Shown piece after piece: positions 5,801-14,291 of a DNA stretch of 64,000 nucleotides. The stretch comes from Candidatus Cloacimonadales bacterium (lineage in GTDB: Bacteria; Cloacimonadota; Cloacimonadia; Cloacimonadales; JAFGVF01). Under the pieces are notes generated by a model, which had not been told where the DNA came from, did no database searches, and saw only the letters and a program-made list of their open reading frames with translations. Made by a program: the position numbers and the translations under genes. The stretch lies in NCBI GenBank assembly GCA_963663475.2, contig CAXXJV010000002.1, positions 1 through 64,000 of the forward strand. Direction: 5' to 3'. How positions within the stretch are numbered: the stretch's first letter is position 1; the number at the start of each line of letters is the position of its first letter.

Positions 5801-6172
5801 ATGCACGAAACCTTTCATTATAAAGGTAACTTTGACTTCTACTACTACGAAACTAATCAGAAAAAACTCGCTAAGGCTTTTCTAAAGTATATATTTCCTG
5901 AAGAAGTCATAAAAAAAGCGAGAGGCAAAAAGTATGAATCTATTGAACAATCGGTTATATCTGAACAAACTGAAATCTTATCAAGTATTTTTAAAGTTTT
6001 TTCTCCAGAAGCCTGTTCATACAAGATTCGTAAAATTGCCTCTCAGGATATTGATTTAGCTGTTATTCTCTACCTTATAGCTAAGGATAGGCTTGCCAAC
6101 GCCTTTCTTTACAAAGGGTATTTCAACGTGAAAGATGAGCTTGGACGCCTCGTGATGAAGTCCATCATCTAA
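5801..6172 (+). CDS. Moron-like hypothetical protein, opposite to the early operon
   Basis: Own promoter and strong RBS; 123-aa ORF. Confidence 0.65.
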   Translation: MHETFHYKGNFDFYYYETNQKKLAKAFLKYIFPEEVIKKARGKKYESIEQSVISEQTEILSSIFKVFSPEACSYKIRKIASQDIDLAVILYLIAKDRLANAFLYKGYFNVKDELGRLVMKSII

Positions 6173-6370
6173 CAAAGCATGAAGGGTTTTAAGAATTCTA
6201 TCTGTTGCTACATCAACAGTTTTGCGGATTCTCCTGTTCTTTATCTCAAGAGAACTTAACTCTTCATCAGAAACCAAGTGCAAGTCCTCCTTATTAACCG
6301 GGCTTGCACTTTTTGCATTTTCTATCATTTCATCTATTTCATCATCAATAGTTTTTATTTTATCATTCAT
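6056..6370 (-). CDS. Phage hypothetical protein
   Basis: AGGAG RBS; lies in early operon; 3' end overlaps the + strand gene. Confidence 0.5.
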   Translation of the reverse strand: MNDKIKTIDDEIDEMIENAKSASPVNKEDLHLVSDEELSSLEIKNRRIRKTVDVATDRILKTLHALLDDGLHHEASKLIFHVEIPFVKKGVGKPILSYKVENNS

Positions 6371-6432
6371 TATCTTCTCCTAATTCGTGTTAATTGGTTT
6401 AAATTCGTTTAAATTCGTGTAAAAGTCTTCTC

Positions 6433-7044
6433 TTACAGTGCTGAAAAGTTCAAGCTGATAGTATTCCATTCCCCAGTATCATCCTTAACCTTAAAGGTAA
6501 GATATTTCTTGGTAGATTCTACCTGGGTTGCTTCATCTATCAAGGCCATAGCTTCTTGCCATTCCGGATGTTCGATTTTTAGTTGTCTCAATCCTAAAAT
6601 CTGCTGAACATCTACATTGCCTCTTTTATCGACATTAAAGGCCTTATTAATAAGCATAACTATCTCTTTACCTGATTGTTTCACAAGTCCTTTGATATAG
6701 TTATCTATCTTAGTTTTGGCTAATTGGAGGCGTTCATCAAAAGCTAATCTCTTATTGATCTTAACCTCGATGGCTTTCTCCTTAGAAAAATCATAAATCC
6801 AGGCATTGCCTCGCCAGTCTTCACCATGTTGATGGGCAACCTTGTTTAAATGATTATCCACTACTCTGAAGACATCTACTCTAAACTCTGCTATCTGCTT
6901 CTGAAGTGCAATAACATCACTTATAACTTTACACACTAACTCATCACGGGCCTGATCATCTTTACTGATATACTTTACAGGAACCTTATATCCTTCTCCA
7001 TCGACCCAATATACACTCTTTCCTTCTTTAATCTCTTTTGCCAT
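6433..7044 (-). CDS. DUF3164 family Mu-like prophage protein
   Basis: YWVDGEGYKVP, FDERLQLAKTKID, AFNVDKRG, WQEAMALI, ISLNFSAL motifs. Confidence 0.8.
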   Translation of the reverse strand: MAKEIKEGKSVYWVDGEGYKVPVKYISKDDQARDELVCKVISDVIALQKQIAEFRVDVFRVVDNHLNKVAHQHGEDWRGNAWIYDFSKEKAIEVKINKRLAFDERLQLAKTKIDNYIKGLVKQSGKEIVMLINKAFNVDKRGNVDVQQILGLRQLKIEHPEWQEAMALIDEATQVESTKKYLTFKVKDDTGEWNTISLNFSAL

Positions 7045-7154
7045 TATTTACCTCTCTTTATTATCTTTTTCGCTTCTCTTCTTCTTTCGGCTCTTGAACC
7101 TCTTAGTTCTTTAGCTATTTTGCTTATTTCATTGTGTTTGATTCCTTTTTTCAT
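7044..7154 (-). CDS. Small basic phage protein (36 aa, not in ORF track)
   Basis: GAGGAG RBS; MKKGIKHNEISKIAKELRGSRAERRREAKKIIKRGK; TAATG coupling to DUF3164 gene. Confidence 0.5.
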   Translation of the reverse strand: MKKGIKHNEISKIAKELRGSRAERRREAKKIIKRGK

Positions 7155-7256
7155 ATTCTCCTCTCTTAAAACTCTGTGAAACTCCTCTTAACCTCTGTGA
7201 AACTCTGTGTTAAGGGTATTTCTTAATTCGTGTTAATTTGCTTAAATTCGTGTTAA

Positions 7257-7871
7257 TTAGTGTGAAGACTTTTCTACCTCTTCCTCAAACTTCCTCTGTT
7301 GCTTCCTGATCACTTCATTAACTTCCTGCAAGTCCATATCCTGGAAATAGAGAGCTAACTTATAACTTAATTCTCTCTTAGAGCAGTTAAAGTAACCCAG
7401 CATGTTCTCAAAATATTGTTCTACTAAGACATCTTTTAAGGTCTTTGCTTCTTCCCGGGCTTTTACCTTTATCTCTTTTACTTTCTCATTTAACTCAGGA
7501 TATGTAAGGTCTTCAGCTGTTTTTACCCACTCCTCCTGAACTTCATAACTTGTATCTTTTACTATTGGGTGGATTAACTCCAACTTATCAAAACCAACCT
7601 TATTGATAGTATCTTCATCCAGGTTCATCTCTCTAATAAAGAAGTCATACATCTTAGTTAAAGAATTGGCCACTCTACCGGGTAGGTTATACTCAGCTTC
7701 AGTAAACTCTCTAAAGCTCTTATAACCCTTTATTTTGTATGTTCGCATTCTCTTAATCTCAGAGAGCAGATTACCTGTCTCTACCATACTAAGTTCCATC
7801 TTTCCTAAGAGCTTCCTGATTGCTTCAAATCTTTCTTCAGGACTTAACTCCATAAATTGTTCGTTATTCAT
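7257..7871 (-). CDS. Phage helical protein (GYxSF-type, DUF3102-like)
   Basis: ETGNLLSEIK...YKIKGYKSFREF motif; AAGGAG RBS before ATG 7871. Confidence 0.55.
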   Translation of the reverse strand: MNNEQFMELSPEERFEAIRKLLGKMELSMVETGNLLSEIKRMRTYKIKGYKSFREFTEAEYNLPGRVANSLTKMYDFFIREMNLDEDTINKVGFDKLELIHPIVKDTSYEVQEEWVKTAEDLTYPELNEKVKEIKVKAREEAKTLKDVLVEQYFENMLGYFNCSKRELSYKLALYFQDMDLQEVNEVIRKQQRKFEEEVEKSSH

Positions 7872-7917
7872 ACTTGTCTCCTTTGACAACTCTTTGATGC
7901 CTGTATAGGCGGGGTGG

Positions 7918-8133
7918 TTAATTGTTATCTAATTGTAGTATATCAGAGTCTTCATCAACAAGCTCCAATATTTCTTTATCTAAGGAAATGGTTATTACAT
8001 TGTTTACCCATATTCTCCGGTACAACCACTTTGCTAATGCTTCAAAACCTGATGCAATAACACTTACTTCTATATAGTCTCCATTACCACCTTTATACTT
8101 GATTTTCCATACATATTTCCTTTGTTCTTTCAC
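7918..8133 (-). CDS. Phage hypothetical protein
   Basis: ORF coupled to neighbours, GGAGG RBS. Confidence 0.5.
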   Translation of the reverse strand: MKEQRKYVWKIKYKGGNGDYIEVSVIASGFEALAKWLYRRIWVNNVITISLDKEILELVDEDSDILQLDNN

Positions 8134-8423
8134 TCTTCCTCCAGGTGATCTACTTCCACCAAAGCATCATACTCTTCTTTGCTTATTTCAATTTGATCAT
8201 CAGCATTTTTAACTGGTAGAGTATCTGATTTTACTAATACCCGTCTGGAAGGAAAGCAGGCTGTAATTAATAAAGTACCTTTATCTTTTGGAACCAGGCT
8301 GACTGATATATTCTTGACTATTTCAAGCATCTCTTCGGTAAAATTTAACTTGTTACAAGACCCTAATATGCCTTGTATAGTCATTTCTTTTACTTTAGGG
8401 TCTATTATTTCATAGTATTTCAT
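8130..8423 (-). CDS. Phage hypothetical protein
   Basis: ATGA overlap with upstream gene. Confidence 0.55.
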   Translation of the reverse strand: MKYYEIIDPKVKEMTIQGILGSCNKLNFTEEMLEIVKNISVSLVPKDKGTLLITACFPSRRVLVKSDTLPVKNADDQIEISKEEYDALVEVDHLEEE

Positions 8424-8692
8424 AGTTTAAACCTCGTATCAGCTCTTAGCTCATCAGCAATATAACTTAGTATATTGGCTACTTTAGAGGGTGGGAGCCC
8501 CTCGAACATGCTCTCAATCTTCTTGTGAGCCATTTCAAGGGTTAATTCTTTCTGTATCGTCACATCAACTTTACTTGTTGGATTATAAGCTGTCCCTGTT
8601 ATTTCGATTCCTAAATCTTCCAAGGCTTTAACTACTTTAGGTTCTCTTAATACACTATCACACTCTAAATGGATTATCACTCTAGGTTTCAT
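8420..8692 (-). CDS. Small protein paralogous to the transposase catalytic-core segment
   Basis: 22/38 gapless identity with transposase segment 12106-12219; AAGGAG RBS. Confidence 0.8.
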   Translation of the reverse strand: MKPRVIIHLECDSVLREPKVVKALEDLGIEITGTAYNPTSKVDVTIQKELTLEMAHKKIESMFEGLPPSKVANILSYIADELRADTRFKL

Positions 8693-8765
8693 CTTTTTCT
8701 CCTTTTTCCTTGACTTATTTGTTAATACTTGTATTTATTTGTAAATTTACCTTTAGGAGGAACCC

Positions 8766-9332
8766 ATGAAACAACATGAACTCAACCTAATGCGGGTTGC
8801 TGAAGCTATTACTAAACTATCTTCACTTCTATCTGAGAAGCAGGTGGAACATCTTTATCAATTATGTTTAGTGTCGGGCGAAACAGCTCTATTAGATTCT
8901 CTTGCCAAATATAAGCATACTGTCCGGTTTGTATTAAAGCTTTCATCGCTTCATCCAGATCACGTCGCAGAAATTCAAGCAAAGACTTCCTCTTCTCGCT
9001 TTGCTCAGCTGGTTCTTTACACAATCTGGTGCTTTCATTACACTTTCTCTGACCCTCTGACCCGGGTAAGAGACTTTGATCAAAGCTTTCAGAAAAATGC
9101 TCAAGAACTTCTAGAATATCAGAAGCACGAAATACATCTTTCATGGCTTCTGCTGTGGCCTTTTCATTCATTTTACAGCCCCTTTTTACTCCGTGTGTGG
9201 TCAAATATATTTCCGTACAATTACTGTAAGCAAGATATACCGAAAGAGTATCTCGAGAAATATGTAGATCCGAACCACTCAAAAAACTTTCCAGTTTTTC
9301 TACCTGTTTTTGGAAATCCTTATGATCATTAA
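8766..9332 (+). CDS. Moron-like hypothetical protein antisense to the early operon
   Basis: AGGAGG RBS, upstream TTGACT motif, 188-aa ORF. Confidence 0.6.
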   Translation: MKQHELNLMRVAEAITKLSSLLSEKQVEHLYQLCLVSGETALLDSLAKYKHTVRFVLKLSSLHPDHVAEIQAKTSSSRFAQLVLYTIWCFHYTFSDPLTRVRDFDQSFQKNAQELLEYQKHEIHLSWLLLWPFHSFYSPFLLRVWSNIFPYNYCKQDIPKEYLEKYVDPNHSKNFPVFLPVFGNPYDH

Positions 9333-9453
9333 CGATAAGTAAACTACCATGTATTAATAACATTATTTCATTTCTAAAATCTTCATATAAACATCTGGGA
9401 ACGCTTAAGATAGTCTTGTTTCCCTCTTTTCGTGCTTCTAAAAACTTAAACAT
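8812..9453 (-). CDS. Phage hypothetical protein overlapping 8766-9332 on the opposite strand
   Basis: AAAGGAGAAAAAGATG start context identical to that of the 8692 gene; 213-aa ORF. Confidence 0.45.
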   Translation of the reverse strand: MFKFLEARKEGNKTILSVPRCLYEDFRNEIMLLIHGSLLIVNDHKDFQKQVEKLESFLSGSDLHISRDTLSVYLAYSNCTEIYLTTHGVKRGCKMNEKATAEAMKDVFRASDILEVLEHFSESFDQSLLPGSEGQRKCNESTRLCKEPAEQSEKRKSLLEFLRRDLDEAMKALIQTGQYAYIWQENLIELFRPTLNIIDKDVPPASQIEVKIV

Positions 9454-9686
9454 CTTTTTCTCCTTTAATTAACTGGGAACGTGGGCATCCCTGCCCGCAT
9501 TCTCTTTAATTCTTAATTTCTTCTTGACTTATTTGTTAATATCTAAAATTGTATAAATGCGTATTCCAGTACGCTTTTCATATCCTTTCCACTCTCAAAC
9601 CTCTGTGAAACTCCTCTTAACCTCTGTGAAACTCTGTGTTAAGGGGTTTTTCTTCTTCGTGCCTTCGTGCCTTCGTGTGAAGCACT

Positions 9687-9917
9687 TCATTTCCTAACTC
9701 CTCTCTTCAAAGGCTTAACACTCACCGTTACCACGGCTTGGGCTTGGCCATCCCATCTCTCACCTTCTAAATCATAAATATTAGCTCTTTCTCCTAATCC
9801 TGTTTTCTCCACCAGGCACTCTTGGCCCATTTTCACTAAGATATCCTTATGATAATACCAGGTGCCATTACAGTATATACCGTCATTCTGTACTAATGCC
9901 TTATGCAAAGCAGCCAT
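9687..9917 (-). CDS. Stand-alone Mu-transposase C-terminal-like beta-barrel protein
   Basis: VQNDGIYCNGTWYY...MGQECLV...IYDLEGERW...A fits the Mu-transpos_C pattern. Confidence 0.6.
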   Translation of the reverse strand: MAALHKALVQNDGIYCNGTWYYHKDILVKMGQECLVEKTGLGERANIYDLEGERWDGQAQAVVTVSVKPLKRGVRK

Positions 9918-10142
9918 TTAGCACCCCCTATACTTCTGAATATTTCTCAATTTCTTAGCTTGAACTTTTATAAGCTTTAGCTTGTCTTGTGATTGGTTAA
10001 ACTTCTGCTTTAATTGATAGTTCTCACTCTTTAAAAGAAAGTTCTTCTCTTCTAATTCTGATATTCGGCCTGTTGAACCGAAAAATGATAAAGTAAGCAT
10101 TATTGCTAATACCATCGTGGTGAATAATAAAAATATAGTCAT
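9918..10142 (-). CDS. Membrane-anchored coiled-coil phage protein
   Basis: AAGGAG RBS before ATG 10142; one TM segment then heptad pattern. Confidence 0.55.
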   Translation of the reverse strand: MTIFLLFTTMVLAIMLTLSFFGSTGRISELEEKNFLLKSENYQLKQKFNQSQDKLKLIKVQAKKLRNIQKYRGC

Positions 10143-10216
10143 AATTTTACTCCTTTTTTTTCTTCGTGTCTTCGTGTCTTCGTGTGAGGAAATTCTCAAC
10201 TCTCAACTCTCAATTC

Positions 10217-10618
10217 TCAATTCTTCTCTGTGTTCTCTGTGGTGAGCCTCTTCAACTCCTCACTCCTAACTCCAGTCTCATCTCCCTTTAAAAACGATAT
10301 AGCAAACGCTAATTGCTTGTTATTCATTTGATATACACTTTGCTTTTTCCAACGCTTAAGAATACCTTTCAAGGTCTCCTTTTTATCATTATCTTTACAC
10401 AGATACTTCAAATATCTTACGGATTTACTGTCTGCCACAAATGCTTGAACCTGAAAAAGCTGGTTCAGGATTAGAGATAACTCCCGTCCTGAACAACAGC
10501 TTATCCTATCAAATCGAACCATGTTTAAACTACCTATCTGCTGATGAAGCTCTTCAGGTGTCCATCCCATGTCTTTACTTTTGTGCCAAATCAGCCTTAT
10601 TGCTGCTTTTCTTTCCAT
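10217..10618 (-). CDS. GemA/Mu gp16-like (DUF1018) protein
   Basis: RKAAIRLIWHKSKDMGW...SCCSGRELSLILNQL pattern and Mu-like context. Confidence 0.55.
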   Translation of the reverse strand: MERKAAIRLIWHKSKDMGWTPEELHQQIGSLNMVRFDRISCCSGRELSLILNQLFQVQAFVADSKSVRYLKYLCKDNDKKETLKGILKRWKKQSVYQMNNKQLAFAISFLKGDETGVRSEELKRLTTENTEKN

Positions 10619-10760
10619 TGGCTCTTTTCTCCTGACTGTTTTTCTCAAAGGTAGTGATTACCATTCCGCAATCATTACAGCGTCTTATTCGCATTACTCC
10701 ACTATCATTACACTCGGTCTTAATTACCTTTAACTTCCCATTACAGTACCTGCATAGCAT
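10575..10760 (-). CDS. Zinc-ribbon protein (Ogr/NrdR N-terminal-like regulator)
   Basis: CRYC...KVIKT...RIRRCNDCG...TTFE. Confidence 0.65.
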   Translation of the reverse strand: MLCRYCNGKLKVIKTECNDSGVMRIRRCNDCGMVITTFEKNSQEKRANGKKSSNKADLAQK

Positions 10761-10764
10761 TGCC

Positions 10765-11037
10765 TTAATTTTCTCCTATGGTTAATCGCCTCTTTGCCTT
10801 TACCTTGCCTTTAAGCCTTTGTTCAGCTTTCTTTAACCCGGATATCTCAAAGCGTCTTTGCTCAATTAAGCCTTTTATCTTTTTGATTCTCCTGGTTAAC
10901 TCCAATCTTTGTTGACCTAACTCACTCTCTTTCATTTTGAGATTGATCTTCTTCTTCTCTTCCTCATCCTGCTGAAGTAGCTTGTATAAATCACTTACTT
11001 CATCTTCCCATTCTTTTAATATTACTTCTAATTCCAT
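10765..11037 (-). CDS. Phage coiled-coil hypothetical protein
   Basis: AAGGAG RBS; charged heptad sequence; no Walker A motif. Confidence 0.6.
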   Translation of the reverse strand: MELEVILKEWEDEVSDLYKLLQQDEEEKKKINLKMKESELGQQRLELTRRIKKIKGLIEQRRFEISGLKKAEQRLKGKVKAKRRLTIGEN

Positions 11038-11050
11038 TCTCTTACTCCTT

Positions 11051-11249
11051 TAATTCCCCTCTGTGGAGGGGTGTCTTGGTATTTCCAAGGCGGGGTGGTT
11101 TCATCTTCTGTCGGACGGTGGACAGCTTGTCCGCCATTCTTCTCTTAATCGGGCGAAAGATGTTTCGCCCCTACATTTCTCACTCTTAATCACTCTATTC
11201 ACTGTTCAAATATCTCCTTACAAAGTCCCCTTTAGGGGTTTTAGGGGCT
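11051..11249. repeat. Mosaic of different short REP-like palindromes
   Basis: CCCCTCTGTGGAGGGG, GGACAGCTTGTCC, GGGCGAAAGATGTTTCGCCC and CCCCTTTAGGGG units; two recur at 4501-4540 and 5383-5411. Confidence 0.75.
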
Positions 11250-11250
11250 C

Positions 11251-13287
11251 TTACTCTCCACTTCCTCCCAATAAGGCACTAATTTCATCATCCAAATCAT
11301 TCACCTTACTATCCATCTTCCTAGTTAAACCACTCTTAACCTTAAGAACTGATACTTCTTCTTGTCGCATCTTCTCAGATACTTCTAAAGCTGAACCTGT
11401 CTTTTCATTGATGAATCGAATGATCTTATTGGGGATTAACATAGTTGCGTCTTTGATTTGTGATTTACTAAGCTCTTCAATTCTATTAAGATAAGATTTG
11501 ATAAATGGATAATCTTCATCATTAACCTTCAATAACTTGGTTCTCATGAGATTAAATCCTTGTACCATTCTTACTGCTTCCGGTTGTGAGAACTCTAAGA
11601 ATCCATAACCTATTTTCTCTTGTAAGAATATCTTGCCTAAATTCTCATTACCTATATATACATAACCCTCTCGAGGATCATTAAACTTTCTTCTTATATC
11701 TACAGGGGTTCCATTAGGTAACTGCATCAAACACTCTCCTAAATAGTAGAACTGCTCACCATCTATAGTAAATCTTACTCTACCACCCTGAACTACCCTG
11801 ACTTCTTTCTTGCCAAACCAGTAAGGAATATGGTCAATTACACTCATTGGTAACATTTCAGGCTTCCACCCTCTCTTTATCCAGGCATTCCACATATCTA
11901 CAGGAGTCATTTTTATCTTACCTCGAAAAATGCTAGGTCTCTGGGTATTCCAATGCTCTACATAATCTGCATAATCCTGTAAATACTCATCAAAATTTAG
12001 AAATACACGCCTGTCTGCATCATCTGGACGCTCAACTGTGTTGTGGTTAATATAAGAATCATACTTGCTATCAAGCTCCATCCTGTCATTGCCAAAACTT
12101 CGCTCTACATTAACCTTAGCTGTCGGATTGTAAGGAGTTCCTATTACTTCTATTCCTAACTTCTCTAAACCTTCAATCAATCCGCTTTCACGCATTCTTT
12201 TATCACATTCTAAATATATCTGCTTAGGAATACATCTATGCTTGATTATTCCATCTATTATAGCTGTCTTTATCTCAATAGAACCATATGTTTTGTCTGT
12301 CATGCACCAGCCCATTATCATATTAGTCTCTGGATCCAAGGAACGAATTACCTTTGGCCTGATTTGCCTGTCTTTTCCATCGTCATCTTTTCCCCATACT
12401 AATACATCCTGGTCATGATCATCTATCATCCATACAGTGTTAGGTGGGTTTATTCCTCGAGCATGACTCATACTGGTGTATAAATTACGCTTACGCTTTG
12501 GATACCACCTGAAATACCATCTATCACGAACAATCGATGTCTTTATCCATTCACGGACCAAATACTCACTTACATCTTCATATACTTCACCAGTCTCTGG
12601 ATCCATTAACTCTCCATTGACCGCCAATAGCTTCATGTCCTCGTATGCCTTCTGAACATTCCATTGAGGATGAGAAATAAGAATTGCCTGCAATAACTCC
12701 TGCATAAAAGTAGGAAGCTCTTTACGGCTTTTACCCCTATCTGCTCTTACCTTTCTCTTTAAATGACCCCTATTCCTATATCGGCTTACCCAACTATACC
12801 AGGTTCGCTCACTCATGAACTGCCTGACATATCCCAAAACTTGACTCTTCTCATCTCGACTTAAATTTAAATATGTCTCGATTAACTTGTCCCGCATTGA
12901 ACCAGATGTCCGCTTAATGAAAAAATCAGGACCATAATCTGATAATATCGGTGGAAGGGTTAAAGGTTGAATTTGGGATGCTTTATTTTTGTCACTCTGG
13001 TCTAAATTATTTTGGCACTCTGCTTGGCACTCTGATTTTTTTGAAGTGTCACTCTGTTGGCACTCTGATTTTTTTGAAGTGTCACTCTGTTGGCACTCTG
13101 ATTTTTTTGAAGTGTCACTCTGTTGGCACTCTGATTTTTCAATCCAAACATAAAGGACTTTCGTACCTACTCCATTAATATAAATTGTGTCATATTTTGT
13201 TGAATATATCCCCTTAGAAATTCTCCTTCTAAGAGTTCTTAAAGATATACCTAGTTCTTTAGCAGCTTCTTTAGTGGTGAGCCACAT
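11251..13287 (-). CDS. Mu A/TnsB-like DDE transposase with N-terminal HTH
   Basis: WLTTKEAAKELGISLRTLRR HTH; RADRGKSR; PNTVWMIDD; PKQIYLECD; PYNPTAKVNVERSF; C-terminal barrel. Confidence 0.92.
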   Translation of the reverse strand: MWLTTKEAAKELGISLRTLRRRISKGIYSTKYDTIYINGVGTKVLYVWIEKSECQQSDTSKKSECQQSDTSKKSECQQSDTSKKSECQAECQNNLDQSDKNKASQIQPLTLPPILSDYGPDFFIKRTSGSMRDKLIETYLNLSRDEKSQVLGYVRQFMSERTWYSWVSRYRNRGHLKRKVRADRGKSRKELPTFMQELLQAILISHPQWNVQKAYEDMKLLAVNGELMDPETGEVYEDVSEYLVREWIKTSIVRDRWYFRWYPKRKRNLYTSMSHARGINPPNTVWMIDDHDQDVLVWGKDDDGKDRQIRPKVIRSLDPETNMIMGWCMTDKTYGSIEIKTAIIDGIIKHRCIPKQIYLECDKRMRESGLIEGLEKLGIEVIGTPYNPTAKVNVERSFGNDRMELDSKYDSYINHNTVERPDDADRRVFLNFDEYLQDYADYVEHWNTQRPSIFRGKIKMTPVDMWNAWIKRGWKPEMLPMSVIDHIPYWFGKKEVRVVQGGRVRFTIDGEQFYYLGECLMQLPNGTPVDIRRKFNDPREGYVYIGNENLGKIFLQEKIGYGFLEFSQPEAVRMVQGFNLMRTKLLKVNDEDYPFIKSYLNRIEELSKSQIKDATMLIPNKIIRFINEKTGSALEVSEKMRQEEVSVLKVKSGLTRKMDSKVNDLDDEISALLGGSGE
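13024..13139. repeat. 33-bp tandem repeat (about 3.5 copies) in transposase linker
   Basis: TTGGCACTCTGATTTTTTTGAAGTGTCACTCTG x3 plus partial; encodes KKSECQQSDTS. Confidence 0.95.
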
Positions 13288-13465
13288 AATCCTCTACCTT
13301 ATTAATAGTGTCTAATGATACTCTTTCAAATTCTTCATTCTCTATTAAAGAAACTGTCCTCTGGGTTAATCCACATAGCAATGCAAACTGGCTTTGATTA
13401 AGTCTTTTTGCCGCTCTATAAATTCTTAACTGTTCTGCTACTTTTCTCTTTTCTGTTTTTTTCAT
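13271..13465 (-). CDS. Cro/Ner-equivalent XRE HTH regulator
   Basis: LNQSQFALLCGLTQRTVSLIEN; divergent from repressor. Confidence 0.8.
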   Translation of the reverse strand: MKKTEKRKVAEQLRIYRAAKRLNQSQFALLCGLTQRTVSLIENEEFERVSLDTINKVEDYVAHH

Positions 13466-13569
13466 TGACAGATCCTTTCTTTATTCTAATATAGAACTAA
13501 TATTAAAGTCATTGGCTATATTGTCAAGATTTATTTTGGATTTAAACTATATTTTTAAAGTAGGTGGCT

Positions 13570-14022
13570 ATGAATTTAAATGTAAGAGTAAGGGAGATAA
13601 GGAAATATCTACGTCTTACTCAGGTAGAATTTTCTTCAAAATTAGGGCTTAAACAAGGCTCAATTGCAGATTGGGAGAGGGGTAAATCGACACCTTCTAT
13701 AGAAACTTTAACAAATATAGCTGATAACTTTAATATTAATCTTCACTGGTTATTAACTGGTAAGGGAGAGATGTTTTTATCGGATAATAAAGAGTCCCAG
13801 GAGAAGAGGATAGATAATAGTGAGTTAATTAACTTAAGAAAACGTTATGATCAGCTGGAAAAGGTTTGTAATGACTTAAAAAAAAGCATTGATCAGTCTG
13901 AAAAAGAATGCTCTATCCTTTCAAACAAAAATCAAGAACTTAATCAAGAATTATTTACCAGGTTAAGAGAACTTTTAGAGTGTAAAGATTTGATTATTAA
14001 ACTACAAAAAAATAACTTTTGA
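13570..14022 (+). CDS. Prophage repressor, XRE HTH with coiled-coil C-terminus
   Basis: LTQVEFSSKLGLKQGSIADWERGKSTPS...INLHWLLTGKGEMF. Confidence 0.85.
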   Translation: MNLNVRVREIRKYLRLTQVEFSSKLGLKQGSIADWERGKSTPSIETLTNIADNFNINLHWLLTGKGEMFLSDNKESQEKRIDNSELINLRKRYDQLEKVCNDLKKSIDQSEKECSILSNKNQELNQELFTRLRELLECKDLIIKLQKNNF

Positions 14023-14026
14023 ATAA

Positions 14027-14151
14027 ACTAAACTGCAATTTAATTTCTAAATCCTAGAACTAAACTGCAATTTAATTTCTCAACAGTGTACTTTTGACTA
14101 AACTGCAAAATAATTTCTCATTCACTGCAATTTAATTTCAAAGTGCATACA
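14027..14151. repeat. Prophage end with four direct transposase-binding-like repeats
   Basis: ACTGCAA(TT/AA)TAATTTC core in units at about 14027, 14059, 14097, 14121; minus strand begins TGTATGCACTTTGAAATT at 14151. Confidence 0.8.
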
Positions 14152-14291
14152 TTAACTGTGATTATTCTATCTATGATAAACTGAAAAAAATGAATAATTA
14201 ATTAATTAAATTTTGTAATTATTCTAAAATACATTAACTTCTATATATAAGTATCGTTATACATATAAAATTAACTATATAAGGAGCTTTG

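Follow-up and report, generated by a model that had tools for sequence, protein, structure and literature searches.

The window analyzed here is a DNA stretch of 64,000 nucleotides from a Candidatus Cloacimonadales bacterium, and its first 14.15 kb belong to a Mu-like transposable prophage of roughly 27 kb. Read from right to left, this prophage carries a repressor-like gene, a Ner-like gene, a transposase gene, small early genes, a DUF3164 gene, and Mu F-like and portal genes. The left end of the element lies near position 14,150. The repressor-like helix-turn-helix (HTH) gene (13564-14022, plus strand) comes first in this order, the Ner-like HTH gene (13271-13465, minus strand) is followed by the gene for a 678-aa transposase (11251-13287, minus strand), and the DUF3164 gene (E = 7.5e-49) occupies 6433-7044 on the minus strand. 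Downstream of the transposase gene and in the same orientation, the early operon includes a gene for a protein of 90 aa (8420-8692, minus strand, coordinates including the stop codon), here called the mini-protein; this gene is not grouped with the repressor. The mini-protein combines an N-terminal module (residues 7-44; 8561-8674, minus strand), which copies part of the transposase catalytic core, with a C-terminal helical tail module (residues 49-90; 8423-8548, minus strand).

The mini gene is preceded by a 35-nt leader (8693-8727, minus strand) that contains an AAGGAG ribosome-binding site (8699-8704), 6 nt ahead of the ATG. Its stop codon overlaps the ATG of a 97-aa ORF (o97; 8130-8423, minus strand) by 4 nt (ATGA), and a 71-aa ORF (o71; 7918-8133, minus strand), third in this coupled string, overlaps o97 by 4 nt (GTGA). 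The ribosome-binding site of its own and the coupling to the next gene that the first-pass annotation had claimed are therefore both present. The 35 nt 5' of the mini gene, including the ribosome-binding site, are nearly identical in the window and in two metagenome contigs that encode homologs of the mini-protein (L009 and L010), and the sequence farther upstream differs. The same 4-nt overlap occurs in L009, where the downstream gene has diverged. A scan of the minus strand between the mini gene and the upstream ORF gave no sigma-70-like promoter, only a weak terminator-like hairpin at 8799-8783. RNA families were absent in an Rfam search over 6000-14200. One run, possibly of RNA, covered small parts of the stretch (pieces at 7219-7250, 7426-7580, and 8846-9049) and no part of the mini gene. 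Just upstream of the mini gene, two ORFs, 8766-9332 (plus strand, 188 aa) and 8812-9453 (minus strand, 213 aa), overlap almost fully; neither matched a family, and the minus-strand ORF is the one that shares the operon orientation.

Four copies of the prophage are present in the 3.3-Mb genome, at C1:1-23265, C1:1362917-1391213, C2:1-14149 (the copy in the window), and C2:304099-331003. Identity between copies is mostly 98-100% in the late and early regions, and both contigs begin inside a copy. For most of its length, the early region that follows the transposase shows 99.5-99.9% identity among the four copies, and the mini-proteins are identical in all four. The transposase genes of the four copies differ, with 84-94% nucleotide identity; divergent transposases amid near-identical copies suggest that several related phages entered the genome or that copies have recombined with each other. 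In a copy on C1, about 1.45 kb of inserted DNA (1364720-1366174) interrupts the transposase gene at residue 314, with residues 1-314 encoded at C1:1363779-1364720 and residues 314-678 at C1:1366174-1367268. This insertion is probably an inserted element.

The 678-aa neighbor matched PHROG 310 (phrog_310, "transposase") with E = 4.8e-39, and its AlphaFold2 model (mean pLDDT 69.7, core blocks 84-94) retrieved TnsB (7svw_B, 6.1e-18), the Mu transpososome (4fcy_A, 4.8e-15), and the MuA core (1bco, 1.2e-11) in Foldseek, with IstA and retroviral integrases among the lower matches. The model runs in the order beta285-292, beta297-330, alpha336-350, beta356-358, alpha363-376, beta380-382, and alpha388-406, followed by a beta-barrel. 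In a family alignment of 10 core homologs, the window's own included and all found among 5.8 billion proteins, every member has the acidic residues D289/D290 (motif DDHDQD), D362 (LECD), and E395 (VERSF). Curated sequence models gave a mixed picture: besides the PHROG match, the Pfam rve models stayed below cut-off (rve_2, E = 0.04), the IS481 model of NCBIfam scored 27.5 bits (cut-off 224), and neither a PDB sequence search nor the GenBank phage collection gave a match. We conclude that the neighbor is a DDE, RNase H-fold transposase of the MuA/TnsB type. Its N-terminal HTH lies at residues 2-26. The N-terminal linker (12990-13150, minus strand) holds three tandem 33-nt repeats that encode an 11-aa Ser/Glu/Cys/Gln-rich unit; this repeat region varies in length and unit among homologs and is modeled as disordered (pLDDT about 25).

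Residues 7-44 of the mini-protein align with residues 357-394 of this transposase (12106-12219, minus strand) without gaps, with 22/38 identities and 30/38 positives (BLASTP, pairwise E = 1e-13), as the first-pass annotation had noticed; the counterpart segment was also placed by DNA alignment. Comparison of the mini-protein alignment with the transposase alignment in hhalign gave a probability of 98.0% (E = 2.3e-13), in a gapless alignment that runs to residue 67 with few identities past residue 44. When the transposase was searched by tblastn against the 3.3-Mb genome, the 38-residue match (E = 6.8e-08) appeared at each of the four copies of the mini gene, and a search of the whole genome at word size 2 and E <= 10 found no further transposase-like piece beside them. 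Mini-protein D12 corresponds to D362, the second Asp of the catalytic triad, and T45 occupies the position of E395, at which the variant P0003 has Gly. The similarity was thus rightly said to end where the transposase continues with ERSF. In the same annotation, the copied segment was said to lie between the triad's second acidic residue and its Glu; the Glu is indeed excluded, but the second Asp is included.

In structural terms, the N-terminal part of the mini-protein comprises beta4, which ends in the second Asp, then a helix, beta5, and the Y-N-P-T-x-K loop before the Glu. Together, these elements amount to about one third of the RNase H-like catalytic core of the transposase. A complete DDE core is absent, since beta1-3, alpha1, the first Asp (D289/D290), the Glu, and the beta-barrel are all missing. 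The mini-protein, lacking beta1-3, the first Asp, and the Glu, is therefore not catalytic and cannot cut or join DNA; the claim of a catalytically dead protein stands, with two acidic positions of the triad missing. The alignments support the N-terminal module as a true paralogous copy of the transposase segment from the second Asp up to, and excluding, the catalytic Glu. An AlphaFold2 model of the mini-protein itself, built from a 3-row alignment, was of low confidence (mean pLDDT 54.7), and a predicted complex of the mini-protein with transposase residues 250-520 scored 0.13 against a mark of 0.32, a result that we did not weigh for or against binding.

The copy is not recent. Within the shared segment, the mini gene and the transposase gene are identical at 78 of 126 DNA columns (62%), and a Nei-Gojobori comparison gave a saturated dS of 1.42 and a dN of 0.32. 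Because of this low DNA identity and the saturated dS, we regard the N-terminal module as an old copy rather than a recent duplication. The mini-protein matches between 16 and 23 of the 38 positions in the 10 family members, with no clear nearest donor, and a closer donor transposase sought among 215 longer proteins that share words with the mini-protein was not found at E <= 10. The positions that have been kept are mainly those under constraint in the transposase: counted from the alignments, the mini-protein retains 19 of the 28 positions at which the transposase family shows no or almost no variation but only 3 of the 11 variable ones. Retained motifs are I-x-LECD, RE, L-x-x-LGI, and GT-x-YNPT-x-K-x-V, and the nine altered constrained positions are Y358H, K363S, R364V, M365L, G369K, G373A, A390S, N393D, and E395T. 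The Y-N-P-T-x-K loop is identical across three variants of the mini-protein, save for one K-to-R change, and agrees with the transposase consensus.

Homologs of the mini-protein are few. A search of 5.8 billion proteins at E <= 0.01 returned five clusters, namely the protein itself, P0002 (the L009 protein), P0003, P0004, and P0005, and an exhaustive search of 1.84 billion representatives returned three matches, P0002, P0004, and P0006. The last of these (488 aa, E = 3.2e-4) was rejected as spurious, being a tandem-repeat protein that matches only a short motif around GIEITG. With the full-length mini-protein as query, 61 genomes yielded the window's own genome only, the other match being the transposase of genome G005, and with P0005 as a query for the tail, the window's genome was the only one found of 232 genomes of the phylum. 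Searches for related loci with the mini-protein found none among genome contigs or viral contigs, and those with o97 found none among viral contigs. The Pfam search with the mini-protein gave sub-threshold matches only (MgtE_N, 0.008; OmdA, 0.053) and no HTH at E <= 0.1; PHROGs, NCBIfam, PADLOC, the ESM Atlas, and GenBank phages (tblastn) gave no usable match, and the best match in a PDB sequence search had E = 1.3. Across the cassette in which the mini gene lies, no gene matched a family, defense, or anti-defense model.

The few homologs reveal a mosaic build. L009 encodes a 90-aa protein that is 87% identical to the mini-protein, and L010 holds the N-terminal part of the 94-aa variant P0003, in which the head is almost exact and the tail has diverged yet can be aligned (59% over 86 columns). 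P0004 and P0005, both of 112 aa, contain residues 49-90 of the mini-protein only, at 93% and 88% identity, respectively, behind an unrelated N-terminus of 70 aa that matched no family. BLAST extended the P0004 match into residues 25-48 of the mini-protein, and we did not count this extension as homology because it is weak (EDL, G, and P only). The NCBI source contigs given for P0005 and for P0009, a transposase 91% identical to that of the window, both measure 17,332 nt, and the two proteins are probably encoded on the same contig. Between the window and L009, the first 153 nt of the gene are identical, and all 29 differences fall in the remaining 117 nt of coding sequence, so that identity breaks sharply near codon 51. 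This break and the patterns in P0003, P0004, and P0005 together show that head and tail are two independently recombining modules. The mini-protein is a two-module chimera, whose tail of about 42 aa is swapped independently of the head by recombination. The tail had been described as unrelated and helical; it is a separately exchangeable module rather than a simple addition.

The gene is intact in all three distinct variants (P0001, P0002, and P0003), and the patterns of substitution in two comparison loci, L009 and L010, speak for translation of, and purifying selection on, both halves. For codons 46-90, the window and L009 differ with dS 0.62, dN 0.18, and omega 0.30. In the N-terminal part, the window and L010 differ at 13 of 135 nt, with 8 synonymous and 5 nonsynonymous changes and an omega of 0.15. 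We also placed the observed numbers of transitions and transversions at random and counted the trials with no more amino-acid changes than observed. For the N-terminal part, window against L010, 4 codons were changed compared to 8.45 expected (p = 0.005), and within codons 1-40 of this pair, 1 was changed compared to 4.64 expected (p = 0.004). For the tail, window against L009, 12 codons were changed compared to 19.05 expected (p = 0.0003). Stop codons appeared in 14% (N-terminal part) and 61% (tail) of the simulated sequences. Absent or broken relatives or ratios near 1 would have spoken against a retained gene; the relatives are intact, the ratios are low, and the claim that the gene is retained is borne out, through purifying selection, in the few relatives available.

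The prophage core around the mini gene is conserved, and the place of the mini gene within it is variable. Four related elements span the corresponding region, from the transposase to the DUF3164 gene; over the best segment, the transposases of two of them are 84% (L011) and 78% (L012) identical to that of the window, and those of the other two (L013 and L014) are 45-49% identical. All four keep the order Ner, transposase, 90-aa coiled-coil protein, zinc-ribbon protein, 143-aa protein, (93-aa membrane protein), and DUF3164. The mini gene, o213, o97, o71, and o210 are absent in 4/4 of these loci, and the slot holds other genes or none; in L011, an unrelated 106-aa ORF occupies it alone. Another prophage, which lacks the mini gene and lies in a genome of the same genus (G003), encodes homologs of o97 and o71; there an unrelated 71-aa ORF directly precedes the o97 homolog, again with a 4-nt overlap, and the o71 homolog lies nearby. 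We conclude that the mini gene occupies a variable accessory slot as one of its exchangeable items and does not belong to the core transposition machinery.

Several further features of this region were recorded. Direct repeats of 85 nt (7148-7232 and 9575-9661; 88.6% identical) flank the cassette o213-mini-o97-o71-o210 and are a possible recombination boundary of the cassette. The sequence at 9552-9661, which includes one repeat copy, had an approximately nine-fold higher contig depth than its surroundings in sequencing runs, which marks it as a repeat dispersed across the genome. Downstream of the transposase, within 9453-11251, no gene for a MuB-like AAA+ ATPase was recognized; this interval instead holds genes for a 90-aa coiled-coil protein, a 61-aa zinc ribbon, a 143-aa protein, and a 93-aa membrane protein, a set conserved in the four related elements. 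L012 (JAVEPM010000094.1) is a 10-kb contig binned in an archaeal Methanolobus MAG, and it carries the same early region as L011 (JBAYZI010000113.1) from Cloacimonadales, with identical match statistics for six early proteins; this probably reflects a binning error and not an archaeal host. A small Cys-rich protein, with C-x-C near its N-terminus and C-P-F-C-G near its C-terminus, is encoded in L009 (335-559), L010 (368-805), and L020 (1272-1535). In L009 and L010, its gene immediately precedes the mini gene, and in G003 it neighbors the o97 homolog; it is absent from the cassette of the window and is another shuffled item of the accessory region.

Taken together, the mini gene is real, and its product is a selected, non-catalytic, two-module accessory early protein; this is a solid, unusual observation on a rare gene. 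Two readings that deny it a present function fare poorly. A pseudogene fragment of a second, decayed transposase gene from an older nested element would fit a segment that is clearly transposase-derived and old. However, only residues 357-394 were found, with nothing flanking them in any frame (tblastn, word size 2, E <= 10), the fragment starts 6 codons past a proper ATG with a ribosome-binding site, and the gene is under purifying selection, so this origin is very improbable and largely refuted. A nonfunctional chimera, that is, a recombination scar that is open by chance and hitch-hikes with the cassette, its conservation reflecting recent common ancestry, is improbable as well. In its favor, the gene is very rare, with four clusters besides its own among 5.8 billion proteins and three matches, one of them spurious, among 1.84 billion representatives; moreover, the four genomic copies are identical, and the N-terminal parts of the window and L009 are identical in DNA and so not independent. 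Set against this are the synonymous excess in both modules (p = 0.005 and 0.0003), the stop codons that arise in 14% and 61% of simulations, the strong ribosome-binding site, the conserved leader and translational coupling, and the intact frame in 3/3 variants.

The readings that grant the mini-protein a function divide on whether its resemblance to the transposase matters. That it acts through this resemblance, all such variants taken together, is the favored reading and a plausible one, with a likelihood somewhat below even. Mimicry is suggested by the conserved residues that have been kept, including the polar loop, by the co-orientation within the early operon, and by the precedent of the Tn5 inhibitor, and we also counted in its favor the four copies of the element in the host, the conserved leader, and the ATGA overlap. 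The narrower version, in which a microprotein imitates the active-site strand-helix-strand-loop of its own DDE transposase and so serves as a poison or timer of transpososome assembly or as a decoy, is unlikely in that specific form, though by no means negligible. In the decoy variant, which belongs to this narrower version, the target might be a host factor or a defense sensor that recognizes the transposase core. Against mimicry count the head, which is a sub-domain fragment only, the change at nine of the 28 constrained positions, the unrelated head that P0004 and P0005 carry in its stead, and the dispensability of the gene for this phage group, shown by its absence in 4/4 slot-spanning relatives. 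The alternative, a credible one to which we give an appreciable chance clearly below even, is that a piece of transposase was caught by illegitimate recombination and now serves as a folding or oligomerization scaffold in a job unrelated to transposition, such as host takeover, anti-defense, or regulation, with the tail and/or the coupled downstream genes as the determinant. The hypervariable slot, in which 0/4 relatives have the gene, speaks for such a scaffold, as do the sharp recombination junction near codon 51 and the o97 and o71 neighbors in a prophage of the genus that lacks the mini gene. The same tail stands behind an unrelated head in P0004 and P0005, and therefore the function of the slot may not need a transposase-like head. 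The kept positions, in addition, belong for the most part to the hydrophobic core or to turns, which a beta-alpha-beta unit of any kind would need. Preservation of the polar Y-N-P-T-x-K loop in three variants, however, is unexpected for a mere scaffold, and the cassette genes match no family, defense, or anti-defense model that would give another role positive support. A core regulatory or immunity role is a different matter: the variable slot (0/4 relatives), the replacement of the head in the 112-aa proteins, and the location apart from the repressor all count against it.

Were mimicry the function, the mini-protein would be co-produced with the transposase from the early operon, would display the conserved beta4/helix/beta5/loop surface, and would compete with the transposase for whatever contacts that surface. 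The contested partner could be a further transposase subunit as the transpososome assembles, the DNA end of the element, or a host or phage factor such as a remodeler or sensor. Transposition would then be tempered or protected, and the tail might supply oligomerization or a second contact. Such a mimicry microprotein would represent a kind of transposition control or counter-defense not described for Mu-like phages and would show that exaptation can turn sub-domain pieces of a catalytic core into regulators. If the mini-protein acts on transposition, it would also provide a new and very small handle on the assembly of transpososomes of the TnsB/MuA family, a family to which the CRISPR-associated transposases of genome engineering also belong. 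Should it have no role in transposition, the locus would still be a clean example, from nature, of how a gene is born when a fragment is captured and modules are shuffled in the accessory region of a phage.

Mobile elements classically restrain themselves through inhibitors derived from their transposase, and the known inhibitors usually arise from the transposase gene itself. A survey of families, structures, and papers, the latter mainly at the level of titles and including work on truncated or dominant-negative transposases and on Cloacimonas Mu-like prophages, found no separately encoded fragment of a DDE catalytic core. The family that donated the N-terminal module is that of MuA and TnsB (PDB 4fcy, 1bco, and 7svw), and the mini-protein itself is not a transposase. 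In Mu, the c repressor and MuA have in common an N-terminal DNA-binding domain, a complete winged helix, and compete for operator/enhancer DNA. The statement in the first-pass annotation that Mu has no equivalent holds for a fragment of the catalytic core, but Mu c and MuA offer a precedent for a regulator that has part of the transposase in copy. Like Mu c, the mini-protein is paralogous to part of the transposase of a transposable phage; unlike Mu c, its segment comes from the catalytic core and not from the transposase HTH (residues 2-26), and it has no HTH match.

Eukaryotic microProteins and the KP derivative of the P element are small derivatives of larger proteins that keep a complete domain and act as dominant negatives by engaging the partners of the parent. 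As a protein of 90 aa homologous to part of a 678-aa multi-domain protein of the same genome, the mini-protein agrees with the descriptive half of the microProtein definition, the other half being action by titration of the parent protein or its partners. MicroProteins and KP keep a complete interaction or DNA-binding domain, whereas the mini-protein keeps only a sub-domain piece. The inhibitors derived from transposases that are known to us likewise keep a whole DNA-binding or multimerization domain. The Tn5 inhibitor (Inh), for example, is the transposase reading frame begun about 55 codons later; it contains the whole catalytic core and the dimerization region and is 100% identical to the transposase. 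This inhibitor dimerizes with the transposase into an inactive complex, which limits transposition (PMC4265352). Like the Inh of Tn5/IS50, the mini-protein is non-catalytic and has sequence in common with the transposase of its own element. Unlike Inh, which arises from an internal start, it is encoded by a separate gene 2.6 kb away with 62% DNA identity, and its likeness to the transposase is limited to 58% identity over 38 aa, about one third of the core, followed by a foreign tail. What sets the mini-protein apart from these known inhibitors is thus that a gene of its own encodes a diverged copy, maintained by selection, of only that stretch of the catalytic core which runs from the second Asp to the loop.
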